Of a DNA stretch of 46,457 bases, positions 2,431 to 46,173 are shown one piece after another. Position numbers and translations under genes: made by a program. Below the pieces are notes generated by a model that worked only from the letters and a program-made list of their open reading frames with translations, did not search any database and was not told the origin of the DNA. Within the stretch, counting starts at the first letter, position 1. Each line of letters opens with the position of its first letter. Source of the stretch: a phage; NCBI GenBank assembly GCA_026328835.1, contig GCA_026328835.1_4850.1, one strand, 5' to 3'.

Positions 2431-2732
2431 TATTTAATCTCTCCATTCAGTTCATTAACAATTAACGTTGCATAGCCAGCAATATCTTTCCAGCTGTCAT
2501 CATAAGTCGGGTCGCCATTCAGAATACGCCCAATCTTGTGCTGAATCATGTCGAGCGCCTCGCGCTGGCTTGGTGTCAGATTGTTCCACCCATCCACTTC
2601 GCGCATGACGGTTTTCAGTTCCTGCATGATTTCAGCGCCATCTTTGAATTTGCCGTATCGGCTACCGCGCGCGGTGATGAGTTGCTCTGTTGCGTCAGTA
2701 TGGCGCCTATCGCCCGTGATTTGTGAACTCAT
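2430..2732 (-). CDS. hypothetical protein
   Basis: 100-aa ORF; 1-nt overlap with downstream gene. Confidence 0.45.
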   Translation of the reverse strand: MSSQITGDRRHTDATEQLITARGSRYGKFKDGAEIMQELKTVMREVDGWNNLTPSQREALDMIQHKIGRILNGDPTYDDSWKDIAGYATLIVNELNGEIK

Positions 2733-3219
2733 TGTGATGTATTCTCCTGAATTCTTTTATTTTTGCTTCCGCTTCTCTTATGTCAGAAAAGTAACCAACT
2801 GTGAATCTTTTGCCATTTACTCCAACTCTTGCATGCCACTTGTTGTGCGATGAACTCCAGTTAACCCCCTTGATACCGCTAGTGTTGTTTTTGTTCATTG
2901 CTTTGTTGTGGCTATTCTCAAATTTGCTGGCCTCCCTTAAATTGCACGCCCTGTTGTCATTGCGAATTCCATTGATGTGATCAATCATTTCACTTGCTGA
3001 TGAGCCATGAATACATATCCATGCCAGTCTGTGAGCAAGAAAAGCCCTACCGCAAAGAATTATTTGCACATATCCATCTGGCTTTAAGTAGCCTGCAACG
3101 CTCCCTTTTTCTGCAATCCTATTCCTTGTCTTTAGCCATTTAAATTCCCCAGTTAGTGGATTGTAGTCAAGGTAACTCAATATAAACTCCCTACTCGGCT
3201 CCTCCCTCCTATGTCTCAT
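2707..3219 (-). CDS. HNH homing endonuclease with AP2-like DNA-binding domain
   Basis: HRLAW...DHINGIRNDNR..NLR HNH motif plus NTSGIKGVNW...W.A AP2-like segment. Confidence 0.8.
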   Translation of the reverse strand: MRHRREEPSREFILSYLDYNPLTGEFKWLKTRNRIAEKGSVAGYLKPDGYVQIILCGRAFLAHRLAWICIHGSSASEMIDHINGIRNDNRACNLREASKFENSHNKAMNKNNTSGIKGVNWSSSHNKWHARVGVNGKRFTVGYFSDIREAEAKIKEFRRIHHNEFTNHGR

Positions 3220-3422
3220 TTCTCAACCTCTTTCATCGTCACCAGATTATTTTCATCAACATTGAAGTTGTCCCTGATAAGGTTATACATCTCATCCTTC
3301 GGCATATCAGCCAGCGCCACATAGCAACGGGCAAAGTAGCGAACATCACGGAGTGTCAGCGGCTGACGCTTCTCCACAATGCTGGTGATAATGTCCATCG
3401 GCTCGCGTCGTGGTCTTGGCAT
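3216..3422 (-). CDS. hypothetical protein
   Basis: ORF track start 3458 is a TTG codon; ATG at 3422 preceded by AAGGAG preferred (MPRPRREPMDII...). Confidence 0.45.
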   Translation of the reverse strand: MPRPRREPMDIITSIVEKRQPLTLRDVRYFARCYVALADMPKDEMYNLIRDNFNVDENNLVTMKEVEK

Positions 3423-3522
3423 ATTTACTACTCCTTCTCGAAAATTATTGTTGACCAATCCACATCACTTAGTCAATACTTATTGACGTAGATTGTACCA
3501 CAACGGAAAAGGTGATGTGGAA

Positions 3523-3720
3523 ATGCGATACAAAGAAATAGCAGCGAGATATCAGAAGGAAGTTCGCGAGGTTATGGAAATCCTTAACGTTCGCGAGGAT
3601 ACCATTAAGTTTGTGGAAACTGCCATGTGCTCACTGGCGCTTGAAGCGGAGGTTGCAGGTCGTGAAAAGGCTGACGAACTTATATCTGCGGTGGTTTATA
3701 GTTCAACCAGTAACGGTTGA
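3523..3720 (+). CDS. hypothetical protein
   Basis: ATG 3523 with AAAGGTGA RBS (track start 3493 is TTG); MRYKEIAARYQKEV... Confidence 0.45.
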   Translation: MRYKEIAARYQKEVREVMEILNVREDTIKFVETAMCSLALEAEVAGREKADELISAVVYSSTSNG

Positions 3721-9055: not shown

Positions 9056-9904
9056 ATGGCAGTAAGATACGACATATTCACCACACGCGAAGATGGCGAG
9101 GTGATGCTTGATGAGTTGATGTCCGCTGACTGGACTGCGCTACAGGTTAACGTGATGCCACTTGATTCATCTGGCGCATACACACCACTTGTCAGTGGAA
9201 CTGTGTCCGTGAAGGTGTCGCCATTTGAATCTGGCAACTACTGGATTGACGTCAACAATAATAATTATTACGGCGTAGCGCTGCGCCTGAAGATAATCAA
9301 AACGGAATTACCAGCAGCAGTAAGTTCGCTGCGCGTTTCGGTGTGGCGCGCTGGCGTTTCTCCACAATCGGTAGTAAACCTTCAGCCTGACGTGGCGATA
9401 AGCGATATCACCACGCAGTCATATATTGAACGCGCCAATAAGCAAGGCAAGCTGTTCACCGCGTCGCGTAGAGTAACTGATGTTTCTGGCGGCTCAAACA
9501 TTGACAGCATTTTTATCACCGGAACAAAGCAGGTGATATTCAACCAGCGCATTATTGGTTACACAGGGAAAGGTGTTATTGCGTCAATCTATCGCGGCGC
9601 AGTTGCCACAGGAGGCACAGCAGCAGAGATTAATAATCCAAACGATATAACACCACAGGCAGCTACGGCGCAGCTGCTGACTGGCGCTACTGTGACAAAC
9701 ATCGGACAGTTGACAGTTGCAGCAACGTATAGCGAAGGGAATGCATCGAATCAGGGGCAGGGTAACTCGCAGGCTAGATTAGGTGAGCAGATTATCATGG
9801 CACCAAACACGACGTACTTACTTCGCATAACATCACTGGATACTGCGGTGCAGAATATCAATGCTTACGTTTCGTGGTTTGAGGATGATACTTATCTGGC
9901 GTGA
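9056..9904 (+). CDS. putative virion structural protein
   Basis: internal ATG 9056 (MAVRYDIF...) after terminator preferred over track start 8852. Confidence 0.45.
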   Translation: MAVRYDIFTTREDGEVMLDELMSADWTALQVNVMPLDSSGAYTPLVSGTVSVKVSPFESGNYWIDVNNNNYYGVALRLKIIKTELPAAVSSLRVSVWRAGVSPQSVVNLQPDVAISDITTQSYIERANKQGKLFTASRRVTDVSGGSNIDSIFITGTKQVIFNQRIIGYTGKGVIASIYRGAVATGGTAAEINNPNDITPQAATAQLLTGATVTNIGQLTVAATYSEGNASNQGQGNSQARLGEQIIMAPNTTYLLRITSLDTAVQNINAYVSWFEDDTYLA

Positions 9905-10675: not shown

Positions 10676-10868
10676 TAAATTGCTTTGTGCACTTCAGGCA
10701 AAGCCACTTGCATTTCTGAATGTTAATCCCTCCGCAGTCCTGGCCAATACTCCCTCTGTATGCGACGGTAAGTTCTCCGCGCTCACCATCAATATACTCA
10801 TCAGGATTTTTAGTTTCATATCCGCATCTATCACACTTATGGATTGTTATGGTTATTTTCGCCATCAC
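10641..10868 (-). CDS. zinc-ribbon protein
   Basis: CDRCG...CLKC Cys pairs in 75 aa. Confidence 0.5.
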   Translation of the reverse strand: MMAKITITIHKCDRCGYETKNPDEYIDGERGELTVAYRGSIGQDCGGINIQKCKWLCLKCTKQFIGFMAGENNER

Positions 10869-11674
10869 ATCTTCTCCAGAATTGCCATGACCTCGTGAAT
10901 ATCAGCAACAGGAATCTGGATAAACTCCTCATCCTCAGCCACCACATGACCAGCAGGAAGAATTACATGATCTGCTGGCTTTAATAACTCAATCAGGCGG
11001 TCTACTGGCTTAATCTTTTTCGACTTCAGCACCTTTGCCGTGACCTTGTCCTTGCCTTGTGCTTTGGCCTCTTCGACTGCCTCGTCGATAACTTTAACCG
11101 CATCATCGCCATGTTCACGCGTTACTGCTACGGCATTTGCATAGCTGATTTGTCCTGCACTGATGCGCGCTTTTACTTCTGCTGGCACATCACCCAGCGA
11201 CAGGTGCATTTGCACGTCAGATACTGAGCGGCCTACCTTCTTGGCGATTTCTTCATTTGTCCAGCCAAATCCTTTCAATCGCGTGTAAGCCTTTGCACGC
11301 TCAAACGGGTCAAGCTGCTTGCCCTGACTGGATGACACCATGAAGGCGATTTTGTCCGCCTCGTCGCCAGTGAAATCCTTGCACTCAATGCGAACGATTG
11401 GTGCGCCGCGTTCAATGGCTCGTAGTGCACCAAGATAGCGATGCTGACCATCAAGAATGCGGATTCCTTTGTCGTCAGGGATAACTGTTAATGCTGGCAA
11501 TGGCTGACCTGATTCCCAGCACTGAGCGAAATATTCAACGTGTTGCTCATCTGCTTCACGGATGTTATATCCCGGCTCCAGATAGATTCGCTCCACTGGC
11601 ACGAGATAGGTTTTGTTAACAGCAATACCGTTGCGCGTTTCTTTGTCTGAATAGATTTTGCTTAGTGTTTTCAT
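10865..11674 (-). CDS. ParB-like (ParB/Srx N-terminal domain plus HTH) protein
   Basis: DGQHRYLGA GxxR-type motif followed by HTH-like EEIAKKVGRSVSDVQMHLSL. Confidence 0.65.
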   Translation of the reverse strand: MKTLSKIYSDKETRNGIAVNKTYLVPVERIYLEPGYNIREADEQHVEYFAQCWESGQPLPALTVIPDDKGIRILDGQHRYLGALRAIERGAPIVRIECKDFTGDEADKIAFMVSSSQGKQLDPFERAKAYTRLKGFGWTNEEIAKKVGRSVSDVQMHLSLGDVPAEVKARISAGQISYANAVAVTREHGDDAVKVIDEAVEEAKAQGKDKVTAKVLKSKKIKPVDRLIELLKPADHVILPAGHVVAEDEEFIQIPVADIHEVMAILEKM

Positions 11675-12015: not shown

Positions 12016-12037
12016 TTATTGTTGTTTCTACGTCATT

Positions 12038-12066
12038 ACTATAAACACCTCACCAATCTACGTCAA
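12038..12066 (-). promoter_or_regulatory. sigma70-like promoter for the minus-strand island
   Basis: minus strand TTGACG (12066-12061), 17-nt spacer, TATAGT (12043-12038). Confidence 0.5.
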
Positions 12067-12074
12067 CAGGAATA

Positions 12075-12083
12075 TGCTAAAAT
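12075..12083 (+). promoter_or_regulatory. extended -10 promoter element (TGcTAAAAT)
   Basis: TG-N-TAAAAT about 30 nt upstream of the ORF at 12114. Confidence 0.35.
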
Positions 12084-14395: not shown

Positions 14396-14766
14396 ATATG
14401 CTTGCCCTGGTTGACGCATATCTTCAGGATGCCGGGTTGTATAATGGCTGGACTTCGCAGTTGCAGTTCTGGAATGATACCGGAGATGGCAACGAGCAAT
14501 TTATTGTCCTGCAATCCAACGGTGGCACGCAGGTTATGGATGGAATAGGTGGTGACTTCTATTTCTCATTGTATATTGTCGGCAAACATGGACAGTACAA
14601 CGTTGCTGATGTTGATGCGAAGGCGCTGGAGATTATCGAATACATCAAAACCCATCCGATTGATTCATGCGTTAACTACATCCAGTTGCAGGCTCCGCTC
14701 GGACGACCAATGTTGACGGAAGAGAAGCGCCCTGTGCATGAGTTGCTTTTGCGGGTTGTGAAATAA
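14392..14766 (+). CDS. putative tail completion protein
   Basis: 124-aa ORF ending at terminator. Confidence 0.45.
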   Translation: MNMLALVDAYLQDAGLYNGWTSQLQFWNDTGDGNEQFIVLQSNGGTQVMDGIGGDFYFSLYIVGKHGQYNVADVDAKALEIIEYIKTHPIDSCVNYIQLQAPLGRPMLTEEKRPVHELLLRVVK

Positions 14767-14792: not shown

Positions 14793-15311
14793 ACTGGTTT
14801 AAGCATTGCCAGCGTGCTTTCTTAATATCCAGTCCCGTAACCCATACATACCCCTACATATGATTGCGATAATGCTGGATATTAAGTGTTGTTGTGGCCG
14901 GTGCTGATCTCCGGCTTGCGGTTATTTCAGACTCTCACGGGCGTTTAATTGCCCCGCCGAACAGCTCTTTTCCGCAATAGCTGCAATGTCTTTCGCGCAT
15001 CAGCCTGCGCATTCACCACAACGGCAAGAACACTGGCTAACCACGCGCGCAGACTCTTCAGGATTATCTGCTCAATGCTCTTACCTGTTGTGTTCCCTGA
15101 CTTATTAATCACACCTCAGGGACGCAGTGCGCCGAATTTGTTTACAAGGAATCGGAATACCTTGCTGACTTACAGGCTATTACGCCGCCATCAGAACAAC
15201 ATCATCGTTTGCATTTGTCTTTGTGGTCAGTTTCTAAAAAGTCCGCAAAGTCGCTCACGAAAACTATCTGAAATACAATCTACACCACAAAATAATCACT
15301 GTCAACACCTG

Positions 15312-15320
15312 TGATATAAT
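15312..15320 (+). promoter_or_regulatory. extended -10 promoter element TGATATAAT
   Basis: TG-N-TATAAT 36 nt upstream of major tail gene; followed by palindrome gttagc-a-gctaac. Confidence 0.5.
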
Positions 15321-16079: not shown

Positions 16080-16108
16080 AAAAGCCCCGAAAGGGGCTTT
16101 GTTTTATT
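16080..16108. terminator. bidirectional rho-independent terminator
   Basis: aaagcccc-gaaa-ggggcttt between convergent genes. Confidence 0.7.
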
Positions 16109-16747: not shown

Positions 16748-16826
16748 AACTCACCTCATTTATTCATCACTCGTTTCGATGACTTGAATCTACATCACCA
16801 CCTCGCAGGTGTCAACATCACCGAGA

Positions 16827-16835
16827 TGATATAAT
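16827..16835 (+). promoter_or_regulatory. extended -10 promoter element TGATATAAT
   Basis: identical to element at 15312; upstream block aatctacatcac...gtcaaca also shared. Confidence 0.5.
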
Positions 16836-16855
16836 CAACATCAGTCAAATTCAGG

Positions 16856-20061: not shown

Positions 20062-20085
20062 ATAAGCCCCTCACGGGGCTTTGTT
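20062..20085. terminator. rho-independent terminator
   Basis: aagcccc-tcac-ggggctt stem-loop. Confidence 0.6.
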
Positions 20086-20949
20086 CATTATCTCGTCCAT
20101 TAATTCAGGTGAATATTTAAGCCACTCCGTTGCGCCATCAAACCCTGTCAGTCCTGCACTTTCGTATTTCTTATGATAGTACCTTTCAATAGCAAGAGCA
20201 TCACAACCTATTGTCTTTATTTTTGATATGACGTGAAAATCAAATGGTGTGTTTTTCTTTAACTGACAAACTCTACGCCTAAGATTGTTAGTGATCCCAA
20301 CTTTAATTTCGTTTCCTGAGAACAAGAAGTAAACAAAGGCCTTTTCTTTCAGCTTGAAACCTCCCTTGGAGCAATGAGGGCAACCTTGCCCTTGGAGATG
20401 CTTATCTGGCGTCTTTGTAAACCACCCATGCTCTGGGCATTTTATTCTCATTTTTGTTGTCACATTAATGTATGACAAGCAATCATAATGGTACTTATTC
20501 CCATGAATTATAATGGCATCTTTCTTGAACTTATTGAACCCCTTAGTTACAGATGCTGTAATTTTCTCCCTTGCGCAAACAGGGCAACCACACCCATTAA
20601 GGTGGCTGTTGGCCTCCTGAGAAAACTCAAAGTTATGTACTTTGCATATTATTTTTACTTTCTTGTGACCACCTTTGTATTCAACTTTAGAATAATCATA
20701 AGAGTCACCATGCTTTGCAATCGCATCAGCCACAAATTCACGCGTTGTTTTCTTCTTATTTCCAGAGCAAGAAGGGCATCCAGCTCCATTCAAATGAGAG
20801 TTTGGAGTCTGCTCAAATAGCCCATGCTTACGGCATGTTATCTTTACCTTTATCGAACTTTTTATATAAGAAACAGCATCATAAAGATATTTATCACCAT
20901 GAATATCTCTGGCTTTTATAATAAATTCTTCAGCGGTTGACTTGCTCAT
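20071..20949 (-). CDS. putative nuclease: three tandem Cys/His zinc-ribbon repeats plus T5orf172 (GIY-YIG-like) C-terminal domain
   Basis: three ~65-aa repeats HG.KY.Y...C..HG.F...P..HL.G.GCP.C; C-terminal VYFLF..NEIKVGIT.NL.RR...EWL. Confidence 0.55.
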   Translation of the reverse strand: MSKSTAEEFIIKARDIHGDKYLYDAVSYIKSSIKVKITCRKHGLFEQTPNSHLNGAGCPSCSGNKKKTTREFVADAIAKHGDSYDYSKVEYKGGHKKVKIICKVHNFEFSQEANSHLNGCGCPVCAREKITASVTKGFNKFKKDAIIIHGNKYHYDCLSYINVTTKMRIKCPEHGWFTKTPDKHLQGQGCPHCSKGGFKLKEKAFVYFLFSGNEIKVGITNNLRRRVCQLKKNTPFDFHVISKIKTIGCDALAIERYYHKKYESAGLTGFDGATEWLKYSPELMDEIMNKAP

Positions 20950-25795: not shown

Positions 25796-25834
25796 TACAA
25801 TATACATCAAATTCACAAAGGAGCATTTACTATA

Positions 25835-27822: not shown

Positions 27823-27853
27823 CAAAACCCCGCTTCTGCGGGGTTAGTTTTAT
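27823..27853. terminator. bidirectional rho-independent terminator
   Basis: aaccccgc-ttct-gcggggtt between convergent genes. Confidence 0.7.
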
Positions 27854-28347: not shown

Positions 28348-29007
28348 TTAAAATCCTTCAATTGGAGTTGGTTTATGTTCGGTTTTTTCTTCCTGCGGTT
28401 CTGGCTGTTGAGTTTGCGGTTTGGCCAGTTTCGCAGGGTTGAATGATTCGCCTGATACCATGAATTTTGCCTTCATCTCCTGATACGCTCCAACAATAAC
28501 GCGAGTTGCCGCATCATCACCACGAAACGCCTTGTATTCCTCGCCATAGATCGCTGTCAACTCTTCCATGCTGGATGCGTTGCGAATCAATGCGACAGCA
28601 TCTTTTGGAGATTTGCGAGCTGCATTACCGTCATCATCAGCTTGCGCAATACCAAACATTGCCGCGATAGAATATCTGCGTGCATATGTCATTGCGGAAC
28701 CGTATCCTTGCGCATCCTTCTTAGCTACTGGCATCGGCATCACTGATGACATGTACTCGCCAGATTCATGCATTATCGTTGTTTCAAGTTTAAGCACATC
28801 CATTGAATCACCATCAATGGCATTCTGGATGATTATAAGACCGTTAGCCTCAAGCGCTGGGCGTATTGCATCAAGAAACGACTCAAGGTTTGCGTAATTG
28901 CTTTTCAGGTGTGGGTTTTTGGCGTTTTTCTTTGCGCCGCTACTCATCACCTTACGAGCCTCAACCAGCGACTTAATCAGATTTGCTTTCTGTTCTGAAA
29001 AAATCAT
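28348..29007 (-). CDS. Erf-family single-strand annealing protein
   Basis: KSNYANLESF ... GSAMTYARRYS motifs; start ATG 29007 with GAGGTG RBS preferred. Confidence 0.65.
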   Translation of the reverse strand: MIFSEQKANLIKSLVEARKVMSSGAKKNAKNPHLKSNYANLESFLDAIRPALEANGLIIIQNAIDGDSMDVLKLETTIMHESGEYMSSVMPMPVAKKDAQGYGSAMTYARRYSIAAMFGIAQADDDGNAARKSPKDAVALIRNASSMEELTAIYGEEYKAFRGDDAATRVIVGAYQEMKAKFMVSGESFNPAKLAKPQTQQPEPQEEKTEHKPTPIEGF

Positions 29008-30244: not shown

Positions 30245-30279
30245 TCATCATCACGTAAATGAATCTACATCAATCTACG

Positions 30280-30711
30280 TCATTCATCAAGTCCAAAATA
30301 GAATAAAGTTGCTTTTTTTAGTTCATCAAGACCGTAAGCGATGGCGGCATAATGACCAATCCTGCACATCTCAGTTAACACAGCGGATTGCTCTTTGCTA
30401 ACCCTGCTTTTGCTTTTATCGCGACGCTTTGCTTCAATCATCCCGCAACCGTGATTCGCACCCGGCGTCATTATCACATTGTCGCCTATTCCAGTCTTAA
30501 CCCCCATCTTCTGGCGCTTCAGCACAAACTGCACCCTGCTTGATGTGCCAGTTTCGTTGGGTACATGAAACCACAGAACATCAGGGAAGCGGTGTTGCAT
30601 CCATGTGCCGTAACCCATCTGGTCAGTCTCCTCCTTCGGACACTCCCCACGATAACCGCTATCAAATACCCATATACCGCTATCAAGCTGCTTCACTTTG
30701 CTCACCTGCAA
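30280..30711 (-). CDS. VRR-NUC domain nuclease
   Basis: GIGDNVIM...GCGMIEAK...S.EQ pattern; next to helicase. Confidence 0.6.
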   Translation of the reverse strand: MQVSKVKQLDSGIWVFDSGYRGECPKEETDQMGYGTWMQHRFPDVLWFHVPNETGTSSRVQFVLKRQKMGVKTGIGDNVIMTPGANHGCGMIEAKRRDKSKSRVSKEQSAVLTEMCRIGHYAAIAYGLDELKKATLFYFGLDE

Positions 30712-32617
30712 AATCTTTTCTGTGTATTATGTCACGGCCTTTATCGTTAATACGATGTGTGATGCGTTTTGGCGCTTTAATCAACCCCGCATACATCATG
30801 AACTGCTTGGCGTTCTGGCATTTCAGGATTTTCCCAGCTATTGATTTATCATCAAGGTGAGGGAAGATGGCCTTTGCCTTGAACATGTTTTTCATGTGGG
30901 TTGCTCCGCCGTAAGGGTAGAAAACCTCGTTAGCCCAGCCTTCTTTGCCATCACAACGATTAATCCAGTAGCGATATAAAATTCCCTCTCCATCCTTCGT
31001 CAACTGGACTTTGAAGTCAATAACATCAGCCCATTCGTTGTCGGTATACGCACGCTCATTCAGTGCCGCATTTGGGTCTCGCAAAACATGATCGCAATGT
31101 CGGCAATAGCGCGCCGTAGGGTCGTTTTTAGTTCCGCAACCATCATCAAAAATACGGATGCCATGCTTATCGAAGCCGCAACGGATGTAGCTGAAAAATT
31201 CTTCGCAGCGACCATCTGGAGATAGTGCATCTTTGCCAATACAGCGGCGAGCATATGGGCTGTTCATTGTTCCACATTTTGGACACGGAACCTGTTCGCC
31301 ACTGCGTTTTGAACGTTGCGCTTCAGCCTCTTCCAGAATAGGGTCTTCATACAGCTGACCAAGCTCAAACATCGTGCCTGAGAAATCCAGAACCAGATGG
31401 TCTTCTTTATGATACCCGGCATCAATTTGCTCTTTCTTCAGCAGGCGCATTCCGCGACCAAGCAACTGAACGAGAAGGGTGAGTGACATTATTTTTCGTA
31501 ATATGACGCTTACATCCCATAATGGGATATTAACGCCAGTTGTAAGCGCGGCGATCTGGAATGTGTATTTTATTTTGCCAGTGTACGCATCCCTCAGGGC
31601 TTTGCGTCTTGCTTTTTGCCCCATATCTTCAGTAACAATCGCGTAGCTGCCTTCAGGAAGGTATTTAGCAGCCTCCAAGCAATGCTTCTTGCCTGCGCAG
31701 GTAATTAATACCCCATTTCTGTCTTTTGTAAGCTCCATCACTTTGAGCATGATTTTCTGTGTAAGAGTTCCTTGTTCAAGTATTTCCTCCTGCATCTGCT
31801 TGAGCTGCTCTGCGGTGAAGTCCTGCGTCCCGTCAACATCTGAGCCATGGAAGTTATGCAGGTCGTATTGCAAGTCATCAACATCATGAAGACCAAAGAT
31901 TGTTGGAACAACAAATCCACGATCTACCATGTACTTTGTGTCAATGTTTATTATTTCATTTTTCCAGTACGCGCCTTTCATTGATTCAGTACCACGGAAT
32001 GGACTTCCGGTGAATCCAATTGTTATCATCTCATGACCATATTTTTCCTTGCATCGCCTGTTAAGCTCAGTAAGTATTACGCCATATTGTGTTGTTGGAT
32101 TCTCACTAATAATGTCCTGCCATGGCACTTGGTGCCCTTCATCACAAAGGCAAAATCTAGGGGTAAAGTCACTCAACCCACCTTTCTTAACGTCACCGTT
32201 TGATTCATCTTTTTTATCAAAAAGTGCGTTAACTATTGTTCCTTCAGTGCCGCATATAATAGGGTATGCTGTACTTTTCCTACCAAGAGATGCGCTATAA
32301 AGAGAGTTTTTTACACCACACTCCCACATCATTTCAGCATTCTGCTCAGCTATCTCGCCCTGCCTTGAGATTACAAGACCCTCCCACCCCATATCCTGAA
32401 ATCTACTGCAAAGCATTGAAATCATCACGGTCTTTCCTGATGAAACAGACGCTGTAACATAGCTTGGCTCTGGTTTCTTTCCAAAATTACGAATAACCTC
32501 AGCGCACTTTGCGTAAACAAGCCATTGGTAATCATATGGCTCTATGGAACCTAATTTTATTGATTTCTTTAATTTATCTATATCAATTTCTGAAATCATC
32601 TTGTCTATTTTATGCAT
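30683..32617 (-). CDS. superfamily 2 DNA helicase with C-terminal zinc ribbons
   Basis: Walker A SVSSGKT; DEGH box (LCDEGHQV); QLLGRGMR arginine finger; CPKCG and CRHC pairs. Confidence 0.85.
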   Translation of the reverse strand: MHKIDKMISEIDIDKLKKSIKLGSIEPYDYQWLVYAKCAEVIRNFGKKPEPSYVTASVSSGKTVMISMLCSRFQDMGWEGLVISRQGEIAEQNAEMMWECGVKNSLYSASLGRKSTAYPIICGTEGTIVNALFDKKDESNGDVKKGGLSDFTPRFCLCDEGHQVPWQDIISENPTTQYGVILTELNRRCKEKYGHEMITIGFTGSPFRGTESMKGAYWKNEIINIDTKYMVDRGFVVPTIFGLHDVDDLQYDLHNFHGSDVDGTQDFTAEQLKQMQEEILEQGTLTQKIMLKVMELTKDRNGVLITCAGKKHCLEAAKYLPEGSYAIVTEDMGQKARRKALRDAYTGKIKYTFQIAALTTGVNIPLWDVSVILRKIMSLTLLVQLLGRGMRLLKKEQIDAGYHKEDHLVLDFSGTMFELGQLYEDPILEEAEAQRSKRSGEQVPCPKCGTMNSPYARRCIGKDALSPDGRCEEFFSYIRCGFDKHGIRIFDDGCGTKNDPTARYCRHCDHVLRDPNAALNERAYTDNEWADVIDFKVQLTKDGEGILYRYWINRCDGKEGWANEVFYPYGGATHMKNMFKAKAIFPHLDDKSIAGKILKCQNAKQFMMYAGLIKAPKRITHRINDKGRDIIHRKDFAGEQSEAA

Positions 32618-33222
32618 TATTTTACCCTACCAAATTCACCATGAAGACTTGATGATGCTTTTGCATACGCTTTATGTGCATCCTCAGGGGTATTAAAATA
32701 ACCAATAACTTTCTTTTTACCTCTAACCCAAATCTGAGCAACCCACCGTTTCTCCCTTTTGAACCAACTAACACCTTTGTATCCGCTAGTGTTATTTGAT
32801 GATAAGCCTTTATTCCATTTGTTTTGACTGCAATCAGCCAACCTGAGATTTTCTATCCTGTTATCGTTCTTAATTGTATTGATGTGATCAATGTCCATAG
32901 CTCCAGGGTCTTGCTGTTTGCATATGGCCCATACAATTCTATGTGCTTTATAATAAACACCATCAATCATCACAAGCCTGTAATTCATTTTGTCAACCTT
33001 ATTGTCAGCAGGTTTCCCCGGATACCGTGAATTCCATGTTTTGTGATATGGCGTTAATTCATCTCTCCTTTTCCAATACAGGCGTCCATTGACAACCTCT
33101 AACCTTGATGTCACGTAATCAACATCAATTTTTAGCACCTTTCTTTTTTTCTCTAAAACTTTTGAGTCGGCACCCTGAGCAACAGAACTCAGCCCTTGCT
33201 GTTCCATAGAATTCCCCCCCAC
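32617..33222 (-). CDS. HNH homing endonuclease with AP2-like domain
   Basis: HRIVW...DHINTIKNDNRIENLR plus NTSGYKGVSW...W.A. Confidence 0.8.
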   Translation of the reverse strand: MGGNSMEQQGLSSVAQGADSKVLEKKRKVLKIDVDYVTSRLEVVNGRLYWKRRDELTPYHKTWNSRYPGKPADNKVDKMNYRLVMIDGVYYKAHRIVWAICKQQDPGAMDIDHINTIKNDNRIENLRLADCSQNKWNKGLSSNNTSGYKGVSWFKREKRWVAQIWVRGKKKVIGYFNTPEDAHKAYAKASSSLHGEFGRVK

Positions 33223-33360
33223 AGTTTTTGCACTTTTTCAGAGTGATAGCCATTTCTTATCCTCGATATTAAACTCAGTTGCGTTTCATGTCAATAACGC
33301 TTGTGCGTTTCATGCGAGTAAATTACAATGATTCTACATCAACGTCAACAGGAAGATTTT

Positions 33361-34314: not shown

Positions 34315-34317
34315 AAG

Positions 34318-34346
34318 AAACCCTCCAATCGGAGGGTTTTTGTTAT
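34318..34346. terminator. bidirectional rho-independent terminator
   Basis: aaccctcc-aatc-ggagggtt between convergent genes. Confidence 0.7.
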
Positions 34347-35025: not shown

Positions 35026-35219
35026 TCACTTAATCATCAATTTTGAAATATCAACATAACCAACACAAAATCTGTGCCAGTAATCATCAAGCACGTGGTA
35101 ATTAGATCGAAACCATGCTTTGTTAATTCCACTCCAGAAAAACCACGTCGAATAACCATACGGTCTGAAATGCCATGAACCTTCTGAGCGGCAAAGTTCG
35201 CCTGATATTGTTCTCATTT
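35026..35219 (-). CDS. hypothetical small protein
   Basis: internal start MRTISGEL adjacent to upstream stop. Confidence 0.3.
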
Positions 35220-36842
35220 TAAGTTCCTCATAAATCTCATTCTCTTCATTGCTGATGACAGGATATTCCTGACTGATGAGTTCATCCGCAAACCAGACCA
35301 TGATCCGCCACCAGAAAGCCTGATATTGGATGGATTTTCGGGATCTAACTCTATTGGTGAATGCCTGTTTTCAGATATCGCAATGATGACCTCGTAAGTA
35401 AATTTATCCGGCGTAACCTGAATTGAGTTTGAATCGGCAGCTGAAATTATCTTACTGATTCTGTCGCGACAAAGTTTGTTTTTGACAACTGAAATATAAG
35501 GCTTTTCAGAGAAAGCCTTTGATTCGATGCATTTTTTAACCTTCATAACAATGTTGTCCCACTCAGTGTTTTCAAGGCCATCAAACTCTGCTTCTCCCTC
35601 AAGATAATCACGCAGGTCGTACATGCTGTTCATTACGGTTGCATACGCCCATTCAATATGGCATTCCTTTATCTGCGGAGTCATGCCATTGCGCGATGAT
35701 AAATCAGCAAATGCACAAAGAGTCGCAAGCTCAATAACCATCTGAGCAGAGCGAGGGCCGACGCTACCAATTACACCGGGAATGTTGCTTGACTTGTCTA
35801 TGCGCCTGCGCAACATCTCATAGTATTTAGAAACGCCATCATTTGCATATTCCACATTAAAGAATCCACCTGGAATTCTTGGTTTCCATTCGTTTATTAT
35901 TGTTTTATTGATTTCCATGTCAGGGGTATTCTTAAGTTCTGGCATGTGTTCATGACCTTTAATGAAAAGAGATCTCCCCATGCCGCCATCCTTTTCCCAT
36001 CTCCTTACTGTTGCAATCCCCTGCTCTGGGGTAACCGTTATGAACGGAATGAACCTTACGTTCTGTATTCCCTTCTCGTTAATGCACAGGTCATAACATT
36101 GCATGGCGTGATTTAATCTTCTTCCAATATCATGGTTCATTTTTGCAAGTCGTCGATAATCTATAGCGCCATCAGATTCACCGATGCGAGGTATCATCCA
36201 CCCCTGAGCCTGCGCAGCAGAGAGTATTAACTTCGGGTTTTGAGCACTAGCCAGCTTCTCCTGAAACAATGTAACGACAGGAGACTCAGGGAACCAGTCA
36301 CCACTAATCGATGTCCTGAACCATGAAGCCGTTTCACCAAGCGGTGAGCGCGTATCTGACCAAGACTGAAGATGTTCAGGGCAATCATCCGCGATATAAA
36401 GCAAGAAACCATCAGCCTCAATGAGTCGTTCTTTGATTTGTCGCAATGATGTTACGGTGCTTTTTGATACGCGCGGAGTGATTCCAAGATTCTCTGAGTA
36501 AGCCTTAACAAAATCAGATGGAGCACCCTTACCTGCGCCAGAGCGACCAACAATAAATGTCCCAGTGGCACACTTGTTTTTTGCGCTTGGTCCAATGATG
36601 TATCTGCCAGCCATCACCTGAGCAAGCGCGATAGCACCCGGCAATCTGTACACCTCTCCTTCTTCGCGATTTTCAAAATGATTCTCTATCTCGCACATGA
36701 ATTCACCAAGAGAACCGGGAGGAATTTTGTATCCTTCTCTGAATTCTGGCACGTCAATTTCATCAAGTGGATTTCCAGAATCAGGCTTACCTGTTGGCTT
36801 CAGAGATTCCTTTAGTTCAATGATTTGCTTTGAATCAGTCAT
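35214..36842 (-). CDS. large early protein of unknown function (Gly-rich loop GRSGAGKG; candidate replication-associated protein)
   Basis: 542-aa ORF; second gene of minus-strand operon leaving the repeat-rich region; Gly-rich loop lacks canonical GK[ST]. Confidence 0.55.
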   Translation of the reverse strand: MTDSKQIIELKESLKPTGKPDSGNPLDEIDVPEFREGYKIPPGSLGEFMCEIENHFENREEGEVYRLPGAIALAQVMAGRYIIGPSAKNKCATGTFIVGRSGAGKGAPSDFVKAYSENLGITPRVSKSTVTSLRQIKERLIEADGFLLYIADDCPEHLQSWSDTRSPLGETASWFRTSISGDWFPESPVVTLFQEKLASAQNPKLILSAAQAQGWMIPRIGESDGAIDYRRLAKMNHDIGRRLNHAMQCYDLCINEKGIQNVRFIPFITVTPEQGIATVRRWEKDGGMGRSLFIKGHEHMPELKNTPDMEINKTIINEWKPRIPGGFFNVEYANDGVSKYYEMLRRRIDKSSNIPGVIGSVGPRSAQMVIELATLCAFADLSSRNGMTPQIKECHIEWAYATVMNSMYDLRDYLEGEAEFDGLENTEWDNIVMKVKKCIESKAFSEKPYISVVKNKLCRDRISKIISAADSNSIQVTPDKFTYEVIIAISENRHSPIELDPENPSNIRLSGGGSWSGLRMNSSVRNILSSAMKRMRFMRNLK

Positions 36843-37120
36843 CAGAGGACTCTCCAGATATACATGAATTTTTTGCTTTCACTGGTTTTTGTTTTGATGA
36901 CCATGCCTTGTTCATTGGCTATTCTGGTGCAGTAAGACCTGAACATGTTGTGCGTCATGCGGTGCTTTTCATCGATCACTACAGAACAGCAATTTTCCTT
37001 TTCTCCTTTGATGATTTCGCTTGAGTATTCATTCTCGAAGTGAATACCAACCAGTTCGCCAGATTTCATTGAAGATAACAGCTCGTATGCAAACATTAAT
37101 TTAGTGCCATCTGGGTACAT
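36842..37120 (-). CDS. hypothetical protein
   Basis: 92 aa; RBS AAGGAGG at 37123-37129 (minus). Confidence 0.5.
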   Translation of the reverse strand: MYPDGTKLMFAYELLSSMKSGELVGIHFENEYSSEIIKGEKENCCSVVIDEKHRMTHNMFRSYCTRIANEQGMVIKTKTSESKKFMYIWRVL

Positions 37121-37145
37121 TCAGTCCTCCTTTTGTGATGTAAAA

Positions 37146-37174
37146 AATATACATGAATATTATGTACACGTCAA
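37146..37174 (-). promoter_or_regulatory. sigma70-like promoter for minus-strand early operon
   Basis: minus strand TTGACG (37174-37169), 17-nt spacer, TATATT (37151-37146). Confidence 0.5.
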
Positions 37175-37215
37175 CGACAGCAAGATAACGTTCTAGCTTA
37201 CACATCTTTACAGTA

Positions 37216-37600
37216 GTTACCGGAGTTACCGGGTTTTTACCGATCAGTTACCGATGCAAGTTACTGATAAATATAGAGTTACCGGAGTTACCGGATTTTT
37301 TGCATATGAGTCTATAAAATATCGAAAATGAGAATTTGTATCAAAATTGAATAAAATGCTTATAAATCATGTATATAATAAGAAATTAAACCCTTTTTAT
37401 ATATGTAAGGAGTTACCCGGTAAATCCGGTAACTATCCTGAGATCCTTGCTGTTCGCGGGTTTCAAGTTACCTGACGTCCGGTAACTCCGGTAACTTTTT
37501 AATGGCAAAACCGGCATAAAAACAACATAAGTAATTGATTTGTAACAGTTACCGGTTTTTATGTTCCGAGTTACCGGATTTTGCGTTACTTGGGTAACTT
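37216..37600. repeat. array of GTTACCGG / CCGGTAAC repeats flanking an AT-rich core
   Basis: at least 11 copies in both orientations, e.g. 37216, 37225, 37278, 37287, 37412, 37427, 37479, 37488, 37548, 37570; AT-rich 37300-37410. Confidence 0.75.
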
Positions 37601-37604
37601 GCTG

Positions 37605-37633
37605 TTGACGTAGAATCATCATTGATGTAGATT
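37605..37633 (+). promoter_or_regulatory. sigma70-like promoter for plus-strand early operon
   Basis: TTGACG, 17-nt spacer, TAGATT; 30 nt upstream of first early ORF. Confidence 0.45.
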
Positions 37634-37663
37634 GAACTCATCGAAACAAACGAGGGTGAAGAG

Positions 37664-40471: not shown

Positions 40472-40990
40472 ATGTCATCATTAAAAGAGTTGCCACTCAC
40501 TCAAGAAAGACTTAAACATCTCCTGCATTACAATCCAGACACCGGTGTTTTCACGTGGTTAAGTAAGCCAAGCAGAAGAATAAATTCTGGAAGCATTGCT
40601 GGCAGGATAAAACCTAAGAAGGGGTATGTGGAAATAGGAATAAGTGGAAGGATCTATCTTGCTCATAGGCTGGCATGGCTTTACATCTATGGAACTTGGC
40701 CTAAAGAACAAGTTGACCACATTAATGGCATTCGTAACGATAACAGGATTAAGAATTTAAGGCTGGCCACAACATCACAGAATCAGTGGAACAAGAAGAT
40801 GCAAAAAAACAACACATCTGGAATTAAGGGGGTTAGCTGGGATAATCAACGGGGAAAATGGATAGCCCAATGCTGGTTATTTGGCAAGTATCACAAAATA
40901 GGTAGGTTTTCATCAATTGATGATGCTGAACGTGCAATAAGACAGTTCAGGGAGAAACATCAGGGGGAATTTTGCAATCATGGCGCGTAA
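40472..40990 (+). CDS. HNH homing endonuclease with AP2-like domain
   Basis: start MSSLKEL at 40472; HRLAW...DHINGIRNDNRIKNLR; NTSGIKGVSW. Confidence 0.8.
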   Translation: MSSLKELPLTQERLKHLLHYNPDTGVFTWLSKPSRRINSGSIAGRIKPKKGYVEIGISGRIYLAHRLAWLYIYGTWPKEQVDHINGIRNDNRIKNLRLATTSQNQWNKKMQKNNTSGIKGVSWDNQRGKWIAQCWLFGKYHKIGRFSSIDDAERAIRQFREKHQGEFCNHGA

Positions 40991-42420: not shown

Positions 42421-42449
42421 TTGACCAATCTACACCATGCGCATATAGT
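42421..42449 (+). promoter_or_regulatory. sigma70-like promoter
   Basis: TTGACC, 17-nt spacer, TATAGT. Confidence 0.55.
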
Positions 42450-42479
42450 ATCTACATCGGAAACATCGGAGATGCTACT

Positions 42480-42686
42480 ATGCGCAGCTATGCAGGATTT
42501 ACACAGGAGGAAAAAGAACAGGTTTATTCACTGGCGCGCGCTGGTGTTCCTGATGATGTCATATGCCGTCGTTATGATATCGACGAGGATTTCCTGCTGC
42601 GCGTCATTGACGATGTGTTCGTTAACCTGCAAGAGAGGCGCGGATATACTGGCATCTGCTGCAAGAATGATTTTTTGAGAGGGTGA
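42480..42686 (+). CDS. hypothetical protein
   Basis: 68-aa ORF downstream of promoter. Confidence 0.45.
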   Translation: MRSYAGFTQEEKEQVYSLARAGVPDDVICRRYDIDEDFLLRVIDDVFVNLQERRGYTGICCKNDFLRG

Positions 42687-45585: not shown

Positions 45586-46137
45586 ATGAAATCAATAAAC
45601 CGCAACAAAATGCCTGCAATGGCTCGCCTTTCACATCTATTCATTATTTCCAATGATGGAACAATCAAGCGCAGAATTGCTGCTGGCAATAGAGCGGCAG
45701 GCAGCAGCGCAGAAAGGAGTTTGTGTGGAAGTGACTATACATGCATAACTGTTGATGGCGTAAGATACCTAACCCATAGGGTTATTTGGTTCTTCTTTAC
45801 TGGTGAAGAGCCTGATTATCTTGATCACATAAATAGAAACAAAAAGGACAACAGACTATGCAATTTGAGGCCAGTATCCGCCACAGGAAACAGAAGTAAC
45901 ACTGATTTGATGAACAACAACACAACTGGATATATTGGTGTTTATTGGTATTACTACAAAGGAACTCCTAGATGGAGAGCTGCTTGCAACGATAAACATC
46001 TTGGGTATTACAGTTCGCTTGTCTCGGCAGTAAAGGCATATAATCGTTATGTGACAAGTATTTATGGTGATGAGGCATTAGCAAAGGTTGAGCATAACAA
46101 GAGGATGATCAAAGAATCTTTTGGTATTGAACTGTAG
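45586..46137 (+). CDS. HNH homing endonuclease with AP2-like domain
   Basis: start MKSINRNK at 45586; HRVIW...DHINRNKKDNRLCNLR; NTTGYIGVYW. Confidence 0.75.
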   Translation: MKSINRNKMPAMARLSHLFIISNDGTIKRRIAAGNRAAGSSAERSLCGSDYTCITVDGVRYLTHRVIWFFFTGEEPDYLDHINRNKKDNRLCNLRPVSATGNRSNTDLMNNNTTGYIGVYWYYYKGTPRWRAACNDKHLGYYSSLVSAVKAYNRYVTSIYGDEALAKVEHNKRMIKESFGIEL

Positions 46138-46142
46138 CAAAC

Positions 46143-46173
46143 AAAAAGCCCTCTAAGTGAGGGCTTTGCTTTA
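46143..46173. terminator. bidirectional rho-independent terminator
   Basis: aaagccctc-taagt-gagggcttt between convergent genes. Confidence 0.7.

Follow-up and report, generated by a model that had tools for sequence, protein, structure and literature searches.

Several described systems place a short repeated word within or beside a series of promoters. The lambda OR/OL operators (for Cro and CI) and the P22 Mnt and Arc operators are palindromes of roughly 17 bp that lie over the -35 hexamer, the -10 hexamer or the start point at several promoters. In T4 middle promoters, the 9-bp MotA box stands at -30 in fixed position and orientation, replacing the -35 hexamer ahead of a sigma70 -10. T7 A1-A3 and T5 PN25 are strong host sigma70 early promoters with near-consensus -35 hexamers and short leaders, and contain no fused -35/-10 word. 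The RK2 KorB/ParB system uses dispersed sites at many promoters, and parS and OB sites are palindromic. In phiEco32, middle and late promoters are read by the phage sigma factor gp36 through AATGTA centred at -11.5 (PMC12276001), and in Kagunavirus a PHIRE 'phage promoter' word, tgAATAGTa-ccTATTat, was ascribed by its authors to a phage RNA polymerase (PMC9825357, PMC7203180).

Our window, the whole stretch of 46,457 bases analysed here, is the complete genome of a small virulent siphophage of the 'Skatevirus and relatives' cluster. It is about 91% identical to Escherichia phage SandraMuster Bas78, with Salmonella phages 64795_sal3, Skate, seszw and Vi II-E1 as further kin; the gene map holds 80 genes, and 9.1% of the DNA is intergenic. 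Within it we find a word that is an undescribed example of a familiar type of phage regulatory element. A profile of 81 non-redundant sites defines its core as an 11-mer, TGRYGTAGAWW, with sharp edges, and a palindrome test on these sites showed it to be asymmetric. The window contains 13 copies over eight promoter regions. A search of one literature library for four 11-mers (the two commonest forms on each strand) returned no paper with any of them.

The 11-mer resembles the lambda and P22 operators in its placement over -35, -10 or start point and in having its presumed regulator gene beside its sites and behind one of them. Unlike those palindromes, it is asymmetric, occurs in either orientation at irregular spacing, recurs at promoter regions round a virulent genome, and has halves that mimic both sigma70 hexamers, its own operator role being putative. 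With the T4 MotA box it shares the character of an asymmetric phage-specific box of about 9 bp joined to sigma70 elements, but it ranges from -36 to +7 in both orientations, and the proteins scanned contain no MotA or AsiA domains. The word of Kagunavirus, a neighbouring genus, is comparable as a genus-specific repeated intergenic word of small enterobacterial siphophages found by repeat searching; identity with it was rejected, as it is a different, partly palindromic sequence.

Enrichment between genes was consistent across measures. The form ATCTACRTCA has 6 matches in the window against 0.17 expected, a number reached in none of 100 shuffles, and an unbiased k-mer comparison of intergenic with coding DNA returned GTAGATTG with 7 intergenic and 0 coding occurrences. 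A 14-mer position weight matrix gave 17 matches at >=12 bits, nearly all intergenic, compared with 1.3 in Markov simulations; one weak match, at 25797(-), is not a member, being the reverse complement of the extended -10 promoter TGATACAAT. The initial annotation had staked its reading on a comparison of intergenic with coding frequency, and this comparison gave 11 intergenic and 0 coding copies of the 9-mer core TGRYGTAGA (p about 4e-12, given the intergenic share of 9.1%). Even the bare 5-mer GTAGA is preceded by TGRY in 11 of 17 intergenic copies and in none of 29 coding copies; since TGRY precedes GTAGA only between genes, the extended word is not an artefact of site selection. The ten or so intergenic sites in both orientations listed earlier are all real to within a few bases, and the list lacked two copies, 12025-12035(-) and the variant 3457-3467(-). 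The full catalogue is as follows.

3457..3467, minus strand: variant copy TGATGTGGATT, in the spacer of a rightward TTGACC-18-AATACT; it points leftward to the winged-helix gene, 34 nt from its ATG at 3422.
3484..3494, plus strand: TGACGTAGATT, back-to-back with the copy at 3457-3467; its TAGATT stands as a -10, with 3523-3720 starting 28 nt on.
12025..12035, minus strand: TGACGTAGAAA, 2 nt after a TATAGT -10 (about -4 to +7), with ATG 11997 27 nt on.
12055..12065, minus strand: TGACGTAGATT, which with the preceding T forms the -35 TTGACG of TTGACG-17-TATAGT (12066..12038) and also overlies the zone where the rightward extended -10 promoter TGCTAAAAT (12075) would have its -35.
15277..15287, minus strand: TGGTGTAGATT, the -10 of TTGACA-17-TAGATT (15305..15277), leftward without a called gene downstream; overlaps back-to-back with TGATATAAT (15312), the rightward promoter of the major tail gene.
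16787..16797, minus strand: TGATGTAGATT, the -10 of TTGACA-17-TAGATT (16815..16787), 39 nt before ATG 16747; the -35 zone is common to a rightward TGATATAAT promoter (16827).
30262..30282, minus strand: tandem pair TGACGTAGATTGATGTAGATT (30262-30272 and 30272-30282, one T in common); the proximal copy gives the -10 of TTGATG-17-TAGATT, with ATG 30232 of the exonuclease/Erf/SSB operon 29 nt on.
33331..33341, minus strand: TGATGTAGAAT, with an adjoining TTGACG half-copy; on the plus strand a reversed copy, TACAAT-g-ATTCTACATCA, 1 nt after the -10 of the primase promoter, which was picked out by eye as TTGTGC-17-TACAAT, and 31 nt before ATG 33361.
37606..37616, plus strand: TGACGTAGAAT, giving the -35 TTGACG of promoter 37605..37633.
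37623..37633, plus strand: TGATGTAGATT, giving the -10 TAGATT of promoter 37605..37633, 30 nt before ATG 37664.
42427..42437, minus strand: reversed copy, TGGTGTAGATT on the minus strand, in the spacer, beside the -35, of a rightward TTGACC-17-TATAGT (42421..42449).
42449..42459, minus strand: reversed degenerate copy CGATGTAGATA, directly after TATAGT (about -6 to +5), 30 nt before ATG 42480.

The copies at 37606 and 37623 are offset by 17 nt and both serve one promoter. The arrangement at 42449 reads TATAGT-ATCTACATCG, and Bas78 has the same design with CATAGT-ATCTACATCA; the orthologue of the variant copy at 3457-3467 is GTGATGTAGAAACG in both Bas78 and sal3. Spacing between neighbouring copies is irregular (10, 17, 22, 28 and 30 nt), and therefore gives no sign of a fixed dimeric binding geometry.

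The placement of these copies makes it well supported, at the level of sequence, that the 11-mer is embedded in sigma70-type promoter cores: all 13 overlap the expected polymerase footprint, at about -36 to +7 of a promoter-like site, in line with the earlier proposal that the word belongs to promoters. The best sigma70-like sites of the window use motif hexamers (16815..16787, 15305..15277, 12066..12038 and 37605..37633). In the commonest arrangement the motif's TAGATT takes the -10 position 27-39 nt before a start codon (3484, 3457, 16787, 30262 and 37623), so that TAGATT is a -10 at five to six window sites; in this role TAGATT and TAGAAT match the form TAnnnT and are followed by a normal leader. 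At two sites, 12055 and 37606, the motif instead gives TTGACG as a -35 with the -10 17 bp downstream. Elsewhere a copy follows directly on a separate -10 and lies across the start point, forward at 12025 (TATAGT-aa-TGACGTAGAAA) and reversed at 42449 and 33331, or lies reversed in the spacer by a TTGACC -35 (42427 and 3457). A TTGACA-like -35 at 16-18 bp is seen at 15277, 16787, 37623, 30262 and 12038 and is absent at 3484, 3457 and 12025.

The initial annotation was thus largely right but stressed the -35 role, although the motif more often supplies the -10. Its pairing of TTGACG with a -10 hexamer 17 nt away applies only to 12066..12038 and 37605..37633; the TATATT promoter (37174..37146) has TTGACG and lacks the motif. 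It also held that no -10 fits at 3484 and 30263, but the motif's own TAGATT is the -10 at both, so these sites need no separate explanation. Host sigma70 RNA polymerase probably initiates at the motif promoters, and we infer their 'early' class from downstream gene content.

Sites in relatives show the same polarity. Among 79 non-redundant sites, 61 aim at a gene start on the same strand and 18 point away, and start-codon distances, counted from the final T of TAGATT, have a sharp peak at 27-35 nt. The final T of the -10 hexamer is missing in about 23% of copies; a 'T-7 rule', by which copies outside the -10 position lose this last T, was unsupported (22/28 versus 36/47, p=1.0). Since about 23% of copies are reversed or lie upstream of start points, an RNA-level element was rejected.

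Structural and lysis genes, all rightward, follow members of a putative second promoter class, extended -10 (TGnTAnnnT), 26-36 nt before start codons:

241, 5908, 12075, 15312, 16827, 25793, 39883 and 43104, rightward: extended -10 promoters, with three more at greater distance.

Leftward motif promoters overlap rightward TGATATAAT promoters of this class back-to-back at 15277 and 16787. That the 11-mer is a fixed-geometry activator of these adjoining late promoters was rejected, as gaps from reversed copy to -10 are 12, 27 and 32 nt.

An indication that the word is more than a pair of promoter hexamers comes from linkage between its halves, which we assessed on promoters chosen only by the pattern TTGACA-N17-TAGATT or TTGACR-N17-TAnnnT. 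In the first set, the last five spacer bases are always TG[GA][TC]G while the other twelve vary freely. In the second, TGRYG precedes a TAGAWT -10 in 18 of 20 cases and any other -10 hexamer in 0 of 20 (p=3e-9), and TTGACG leads on to TAGA in 18 of its 25 occurrences, TTGACA in none of 15 (p=6e-6). Copies in the -10 role often have GTGGTG as the left half; this is unlike a -35, and a second, concealed use by sigma70 therefore does not account for the left half. T-17, G-16, G-13 and G-10 are all conserved beyond the needs of sigma70.

About 80 relatives keep the word, with few copies outside intergenic DNA; phages of Salmonella, E. coli, Shigella and Klebsiella carry it, and in Bas78 and 64795_sal3 it stands at orthologous intergenic positions. 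Viral-contig loci anchored on a ParB-like protein contained the motif in 75 of 79 cases: it was present in all loci in which that protein is >=72% identical to the one in the window, and absent from four at about 45% and from one short 5.9-kb locus. Over all these loci the 9-mer core has 460 intergenic and 23 coding occurrences, and de novo k-mer enrichment in the 72% clade recovered GACGTAGA and CGTAGAT independently. In Salmonella phage SB28, the inserted genes, one anti-repressor-like and one encoding a homing endonuclease, come with motif copies of their own. Footprinting by column conservation in orthologous regions gave no information, since close relatives conserve intergenic DNA over its whole length.

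A more distant comparison was provided by Yersinia phage P400, in which the Skate-type word has 0 intergenic and 4 coding occurrences. De novo enrichment there returned GGGTAGAT (5 intergenic, 0 coding), at sites of the form M-G-G-GTAGATT, with start codons 30-37 nt further on; behind some of these sites stands a TTCATCGAAAC leader box, as in Skate-like phages. Relative to the Skate-like word, the right half is kept and the left half is altered at all sites together. Little or no difference in host sigma70 is expected between Yersinia and Salmonella. The halves are thus linked whichever one sigma70 uses, and the left half changed in concert in P400, which suggests that something reads the whole word; sigma70 recognition alone appears not to account for it. 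The earlier suggestion of a possible regulator binding site gains indirect support from these same two observations.

These patterns bear on one alternative, namely that the sites are plain sigma70 promoters only, with the extra bases spread by duplicated cassettes or gene conversion or reflecting a host polymerase preference upstream of the -10. TAGATT and TAGAAT do obey TAnnnT, half of the copies in the -10 role have a consensus -35 at 17 bp, start-codon distances are those of ordinary promoters, and the ASO78B record annotates the homologue of 12066..12038 only as a generic sigma70-like promoter. As in the T7 and T5 early promoters, -35 hexamers are near-consensus, leaders are short and promoters cluster at operon starts; unlike those promoters, the sites here have a fused word with positions conserved beyond sigma70 needs. 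Against this alternative, flanks, spacers and leaders of paralogous promoters are unrelated and yet the edges of the 11-mer are sharp. The final T, required by sigma70, is missing from about a quarter of copies, reversed copies at start points supply no hexamer, and the P400 change is not expected if an equivalent host sigma70 were the only reader. We consider this explanation unlikely.

We instead favour, with about even confidence, the reading that the 11-mer may combine a sigma70 hexamer with the operator of a small phage regulator that tunes or shuts non-structural operons. On this model the word would be a clade-specific cis-element in the promoter cores of operons for replication and recombination, the ParB/RusA operon and clusters of small ORFs. 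Host sigma70 polymerase would initiate, and a small phage-encoded sequence-specific DNA-binding protein would read the 11-mer as a unit. Once bound, it would lie within the polymerase footprint and block the promoter, leading to coordinated, probably autoregulated down-tuning or shut-off; we guess at repression, and not activation, from where the sites lie. With their separate extended -10 class, structural and lysis genes would escape this control. The halves that mimic -35 and -10 would let the element overlie either hexamer without extra intergenic space.

Three proteins were considered as readers of the word.

3216..3422, minus strand: stand-alone winged helix of 68 aa, encoded by the gene that opens the leftward operon from the double-motif region.
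42480..42686, plus strand: 68-aa three-helix HTH protein, first gene behind the promoter with two reversed copies.
10865..11674, minus strand: ParB-like HTH protein in the operon of the 12055/12025 promoter (Pfam HTH_ParB 2.6e-11, KorB 7e-6).

Only two small non-structural proteins are common to the window, the 72% clade and the distant P400. The best candidate reader, and a candidate only, is the 3216-3422 winged helix, with the 42480-42686 HTH, closest to sigma-factor region 4, LuxR-type domains and the Mu activator C, as the alternative. The winged-helix product is an ORFan confined to the clade, and every motif-positive genome encodes a homologue, among them SB28 (which lacks ParB), the minimal seszw mutant of 36 kb and those of the 72% clade, with some 200 genomes carrying the gene; its gene always stands directly behind motif copies, even in the most divergent contexts. 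With a pI of 6.2 the protein is not basic, and winged helices can serve in protein contacts as well. Motif and candidates co-occur, but all motif-positive genomes form one broad clade, so that shared ancestry confounds this co-variation. In P400 the winged-helix homologue is 38% identical, with the clade-invariant R25, R28 and R50 replaced by H, W and Q and the NFNVDxNN wing segment kept. This is how a co-evolving protein-site pair would look, though in a single comparison that is confounded by phylogeny.

A more tentative extension is that a monomeric 68-aa winged helix (or its sigma-region-4-like companion) acting on a dual-use word could form a compact early-to-late switch with co-evolved specificity (TGRY-GTAGATT versus MGG-GTAGATT in P400). 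Occupation of the dual-use sites would shut the early promoters. Several of these stand back-to-back with extended -10 promoters that lack a -35 and belong to tail, head and lysis genes, and those late promoters would then be freed from polymerase competition. If true, such a switch would serve a virulent siphophage without a sigma factor, antiterminator or polymerase of its own.

The 11-mer might also be a -10-region element for a phage specificity factor that redirects the polymerase, in the manner of phiEco32 or of T4 late promoters (gp55); such a factor could be sigma-like or sigma-appropriating and small, for instance the 42480-42686 product. The comparison with phiEco32 is apt in that there is a single, sharply bounded phage-specific element in the -10 region, often without a -35 (3484, 3457, 12025), and GATGTA resembles the phiEco32 consensus AATGTA (PMC12276001). 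Orientation bias and the fixed start-codon distance suit a promoter element, horizontally inserted genes carry the motif, and a sigma4-like fold is encoded in the clade. Against this, neither Sigma70_r2 nor a complete sigma-like protein was found in the 30 proteins scanned, which yielded only the isolated sigma4-like 68-aa HTH. A viable 36-kb seszw mutant keeps 13 intergenic copies and encodes no uncharacterized protein above about 115 aa except ParB, itself dispensable in SB28, and so offers no phage sigma candidate of adequate size. Nor are the copies placed and oriented in one fixed way with respect to the start point: they occur at the -35, in the spacer, at +1 and reversed, with about 23% reversed or at the start points of other promoters. 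Unlike the phiEco32 element, the 11-mer drives non-structural rather than late genes, and, since nearly all non-structural operons carry it, a phage factor on which they depended would have to be made from a promoter without the motif. A phage sigma factor or similar redirecting protein is thus quite unlikely to be the reader.

Conservation across phages of Salmonella, E. coli, Shigella and Klebsiella would also be expected if an enterobacterial transcription factor or nucleoid protein bound the 11-mer and was exploited by the phage. This is very improbable: P400 differs in the left half while keeping the architecture, the unrelated Salmonella myovirus PT1 has no copy, and we know of no convincing match to the 11-mer among the consensus sites of DnaA, IHF, MetJ, BaeR, EvgA, MetR, RcsB and NarL.

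That the ParB/KorB-like protein acts as a global repressor at dispersed operators in the style of RK2 KorB is barely credible: its Pfam matches, its gene's place behind two motif copies and the retention of that gene in all genome-reduced seszw mutants recall a ParB-family HTH encoded near its dispersed sites, but the fully syntenic SB28 has only a 44-residue ParB remnant and 15 intergenic core copies (including a pair before the remnant), the same ParB-less junction recurs in no fewer than eight other isolates, PT1 encodes a ParB that is 50% identical and has 0 copies, loci with an about 45% ParB are also motif-free, and the 11-mer lacks the palindromy of parS and OB sites.

With host sigma70 initiation and a small phage regulator as the favoured reading of the 11-mer, a regulatory map of the genome can be drawn that comprises about eight motif promoters for non-structural genes, about eleven extended -10 promoters for structural and lysis genes, and two small candidate regulators with DNA-binding folds; the protein annotated 'ParB-like' or 'transcriptional regulator' is excluded as reader. 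Skate-like siphophages have been widely isolated for biocontrol of Salmonella, E. coli and Klebsiella, and seszw is already a chassis for genome reduction; for phage engineering the motif could supply portable promoters and a candidate off-switch. The Skate-like phages and Yersinia phage P400 are a natural specificity-swap pair for studying the co-evolution of regulator and site.

Separately, a CCGGTAACT repeat array was found only in the helicase module of this window. A link between it and the 11-mer was rejected, the array being unique to the window and SB28 having different repeats at the same place.

A number of sites in the window carry an extended -10 element, TGnTAnnnT (mostly TGATATAAT), with no good -35 hexamer:
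241, 5908, 12075, 15312, 16827, 25793, 39883, 43104, plus strand: eight main extended -10 sites
21053, 23214, 45486, plus strand: further extended -10 sites, farther from start codons

Start codons lie 26-36 nt downstream of the eight main sites, and the genes behind extended -10 sites encode lysis, head, connector, major tail, tail chaperone, tailspike, terminase-region and portal functions. From their sequence, these sites look like a separate promoter class, probably late. Two of them are parts of overlapping back-to-back pairs:
15277-15320 and 16787-16838, both strands: leftward TTGACA-17-TAGATT with rightward TGATATAAT

The -35 zone is common to both promoters of each pair. No gene is called downstream of the leftward 15277 promoter, and the sequence there differs among relatives; the pairs could possibly reflect promoter competition or an antisense transcript.

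Two small proteins are candidate readers of the promoter-core motif TGRYGTAGAWW, and both are shared with the distant Yersinia phage P400:
42480-42686: stand-alone helix-turn-helix (HTH) protein, 68 aa, sigma-region-4-like fold
P400 20001-20210, plus strand: homologue of the winged-helix candidate

The HTH protein is encoded by a phage whose late promoters are predicted to be independent of -35 elements, and we speculate that such a sigma4 mimic could in principle disturb -35-dependent transcription. In the P400 GenBank record, the winged-helix homologue is not annotated, and an opposite-strand ORF (vBYenSP400_34) is annotated there. P400 (at 9656-9670 and near 28840) also carries a box that, in the window, comes after the motif at two paralogous promoters:
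37634-37650 and 16770-16786: leader box (A/G)(A/G)(C/T)TCATCGAAAC

This conserved box is possibly a 5'-UTR element. We take one promoter match among the relatives' loci, TTGACAGCTAGCTCAGTCCTAGGTATAAT, to be a synthetic Anderson-type promoter; it may derive from an engineered mutant of the related phage seszw.

A gene-free gap (37121-37663) contains a repeat array:
37216-37576, both orientations: (C)CGGTAAC(T), at least 10 copies

In the window, AGTTACCGG occurs nine times in intergenic and never in coding DNA. The array was found in the window only and accompanies a window-specific helicase module (35214-37120), of which no homologue occurs in Bas78, sal3, SB28 or seszw; at the equivalent position, SB28 has GGGCATA-type repeats instead. 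The array probably represents origin iterons specific to this module.

Convergent gene blocks are separated by GC-rich hairpins flanked by T-runs, which, as read from sequence, look like bidirectional intrinsic terminators:
16081-16100, 20064-20081, 27826-27845, 34316-34341, 46145-46167, both strands: five hairpins

Gene content varies among relatives at five endonuclease genes (three HNH plus AP2, one HNH only, one T5orf172/MUG113), the pattern expected of mobile homing endonucleases:
2707-3219 and 32617-33207, minus strand
40472-40990 and 45586-46137, plus strand
20071-20949, minus strand

Skate-like phages (Macdonaldcampvirus) also include a natural lineage lacking the ParB-like gene, comprising SB28 and further isolates (CHRF_10034, KE12, ST44/46/65, KE08, KE13 and CHRF_10023.1):
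SB28 14409-14707: ParB-less locus

Unlike this lineage, all sampled genome-reduced seszw mutants keep the gene.
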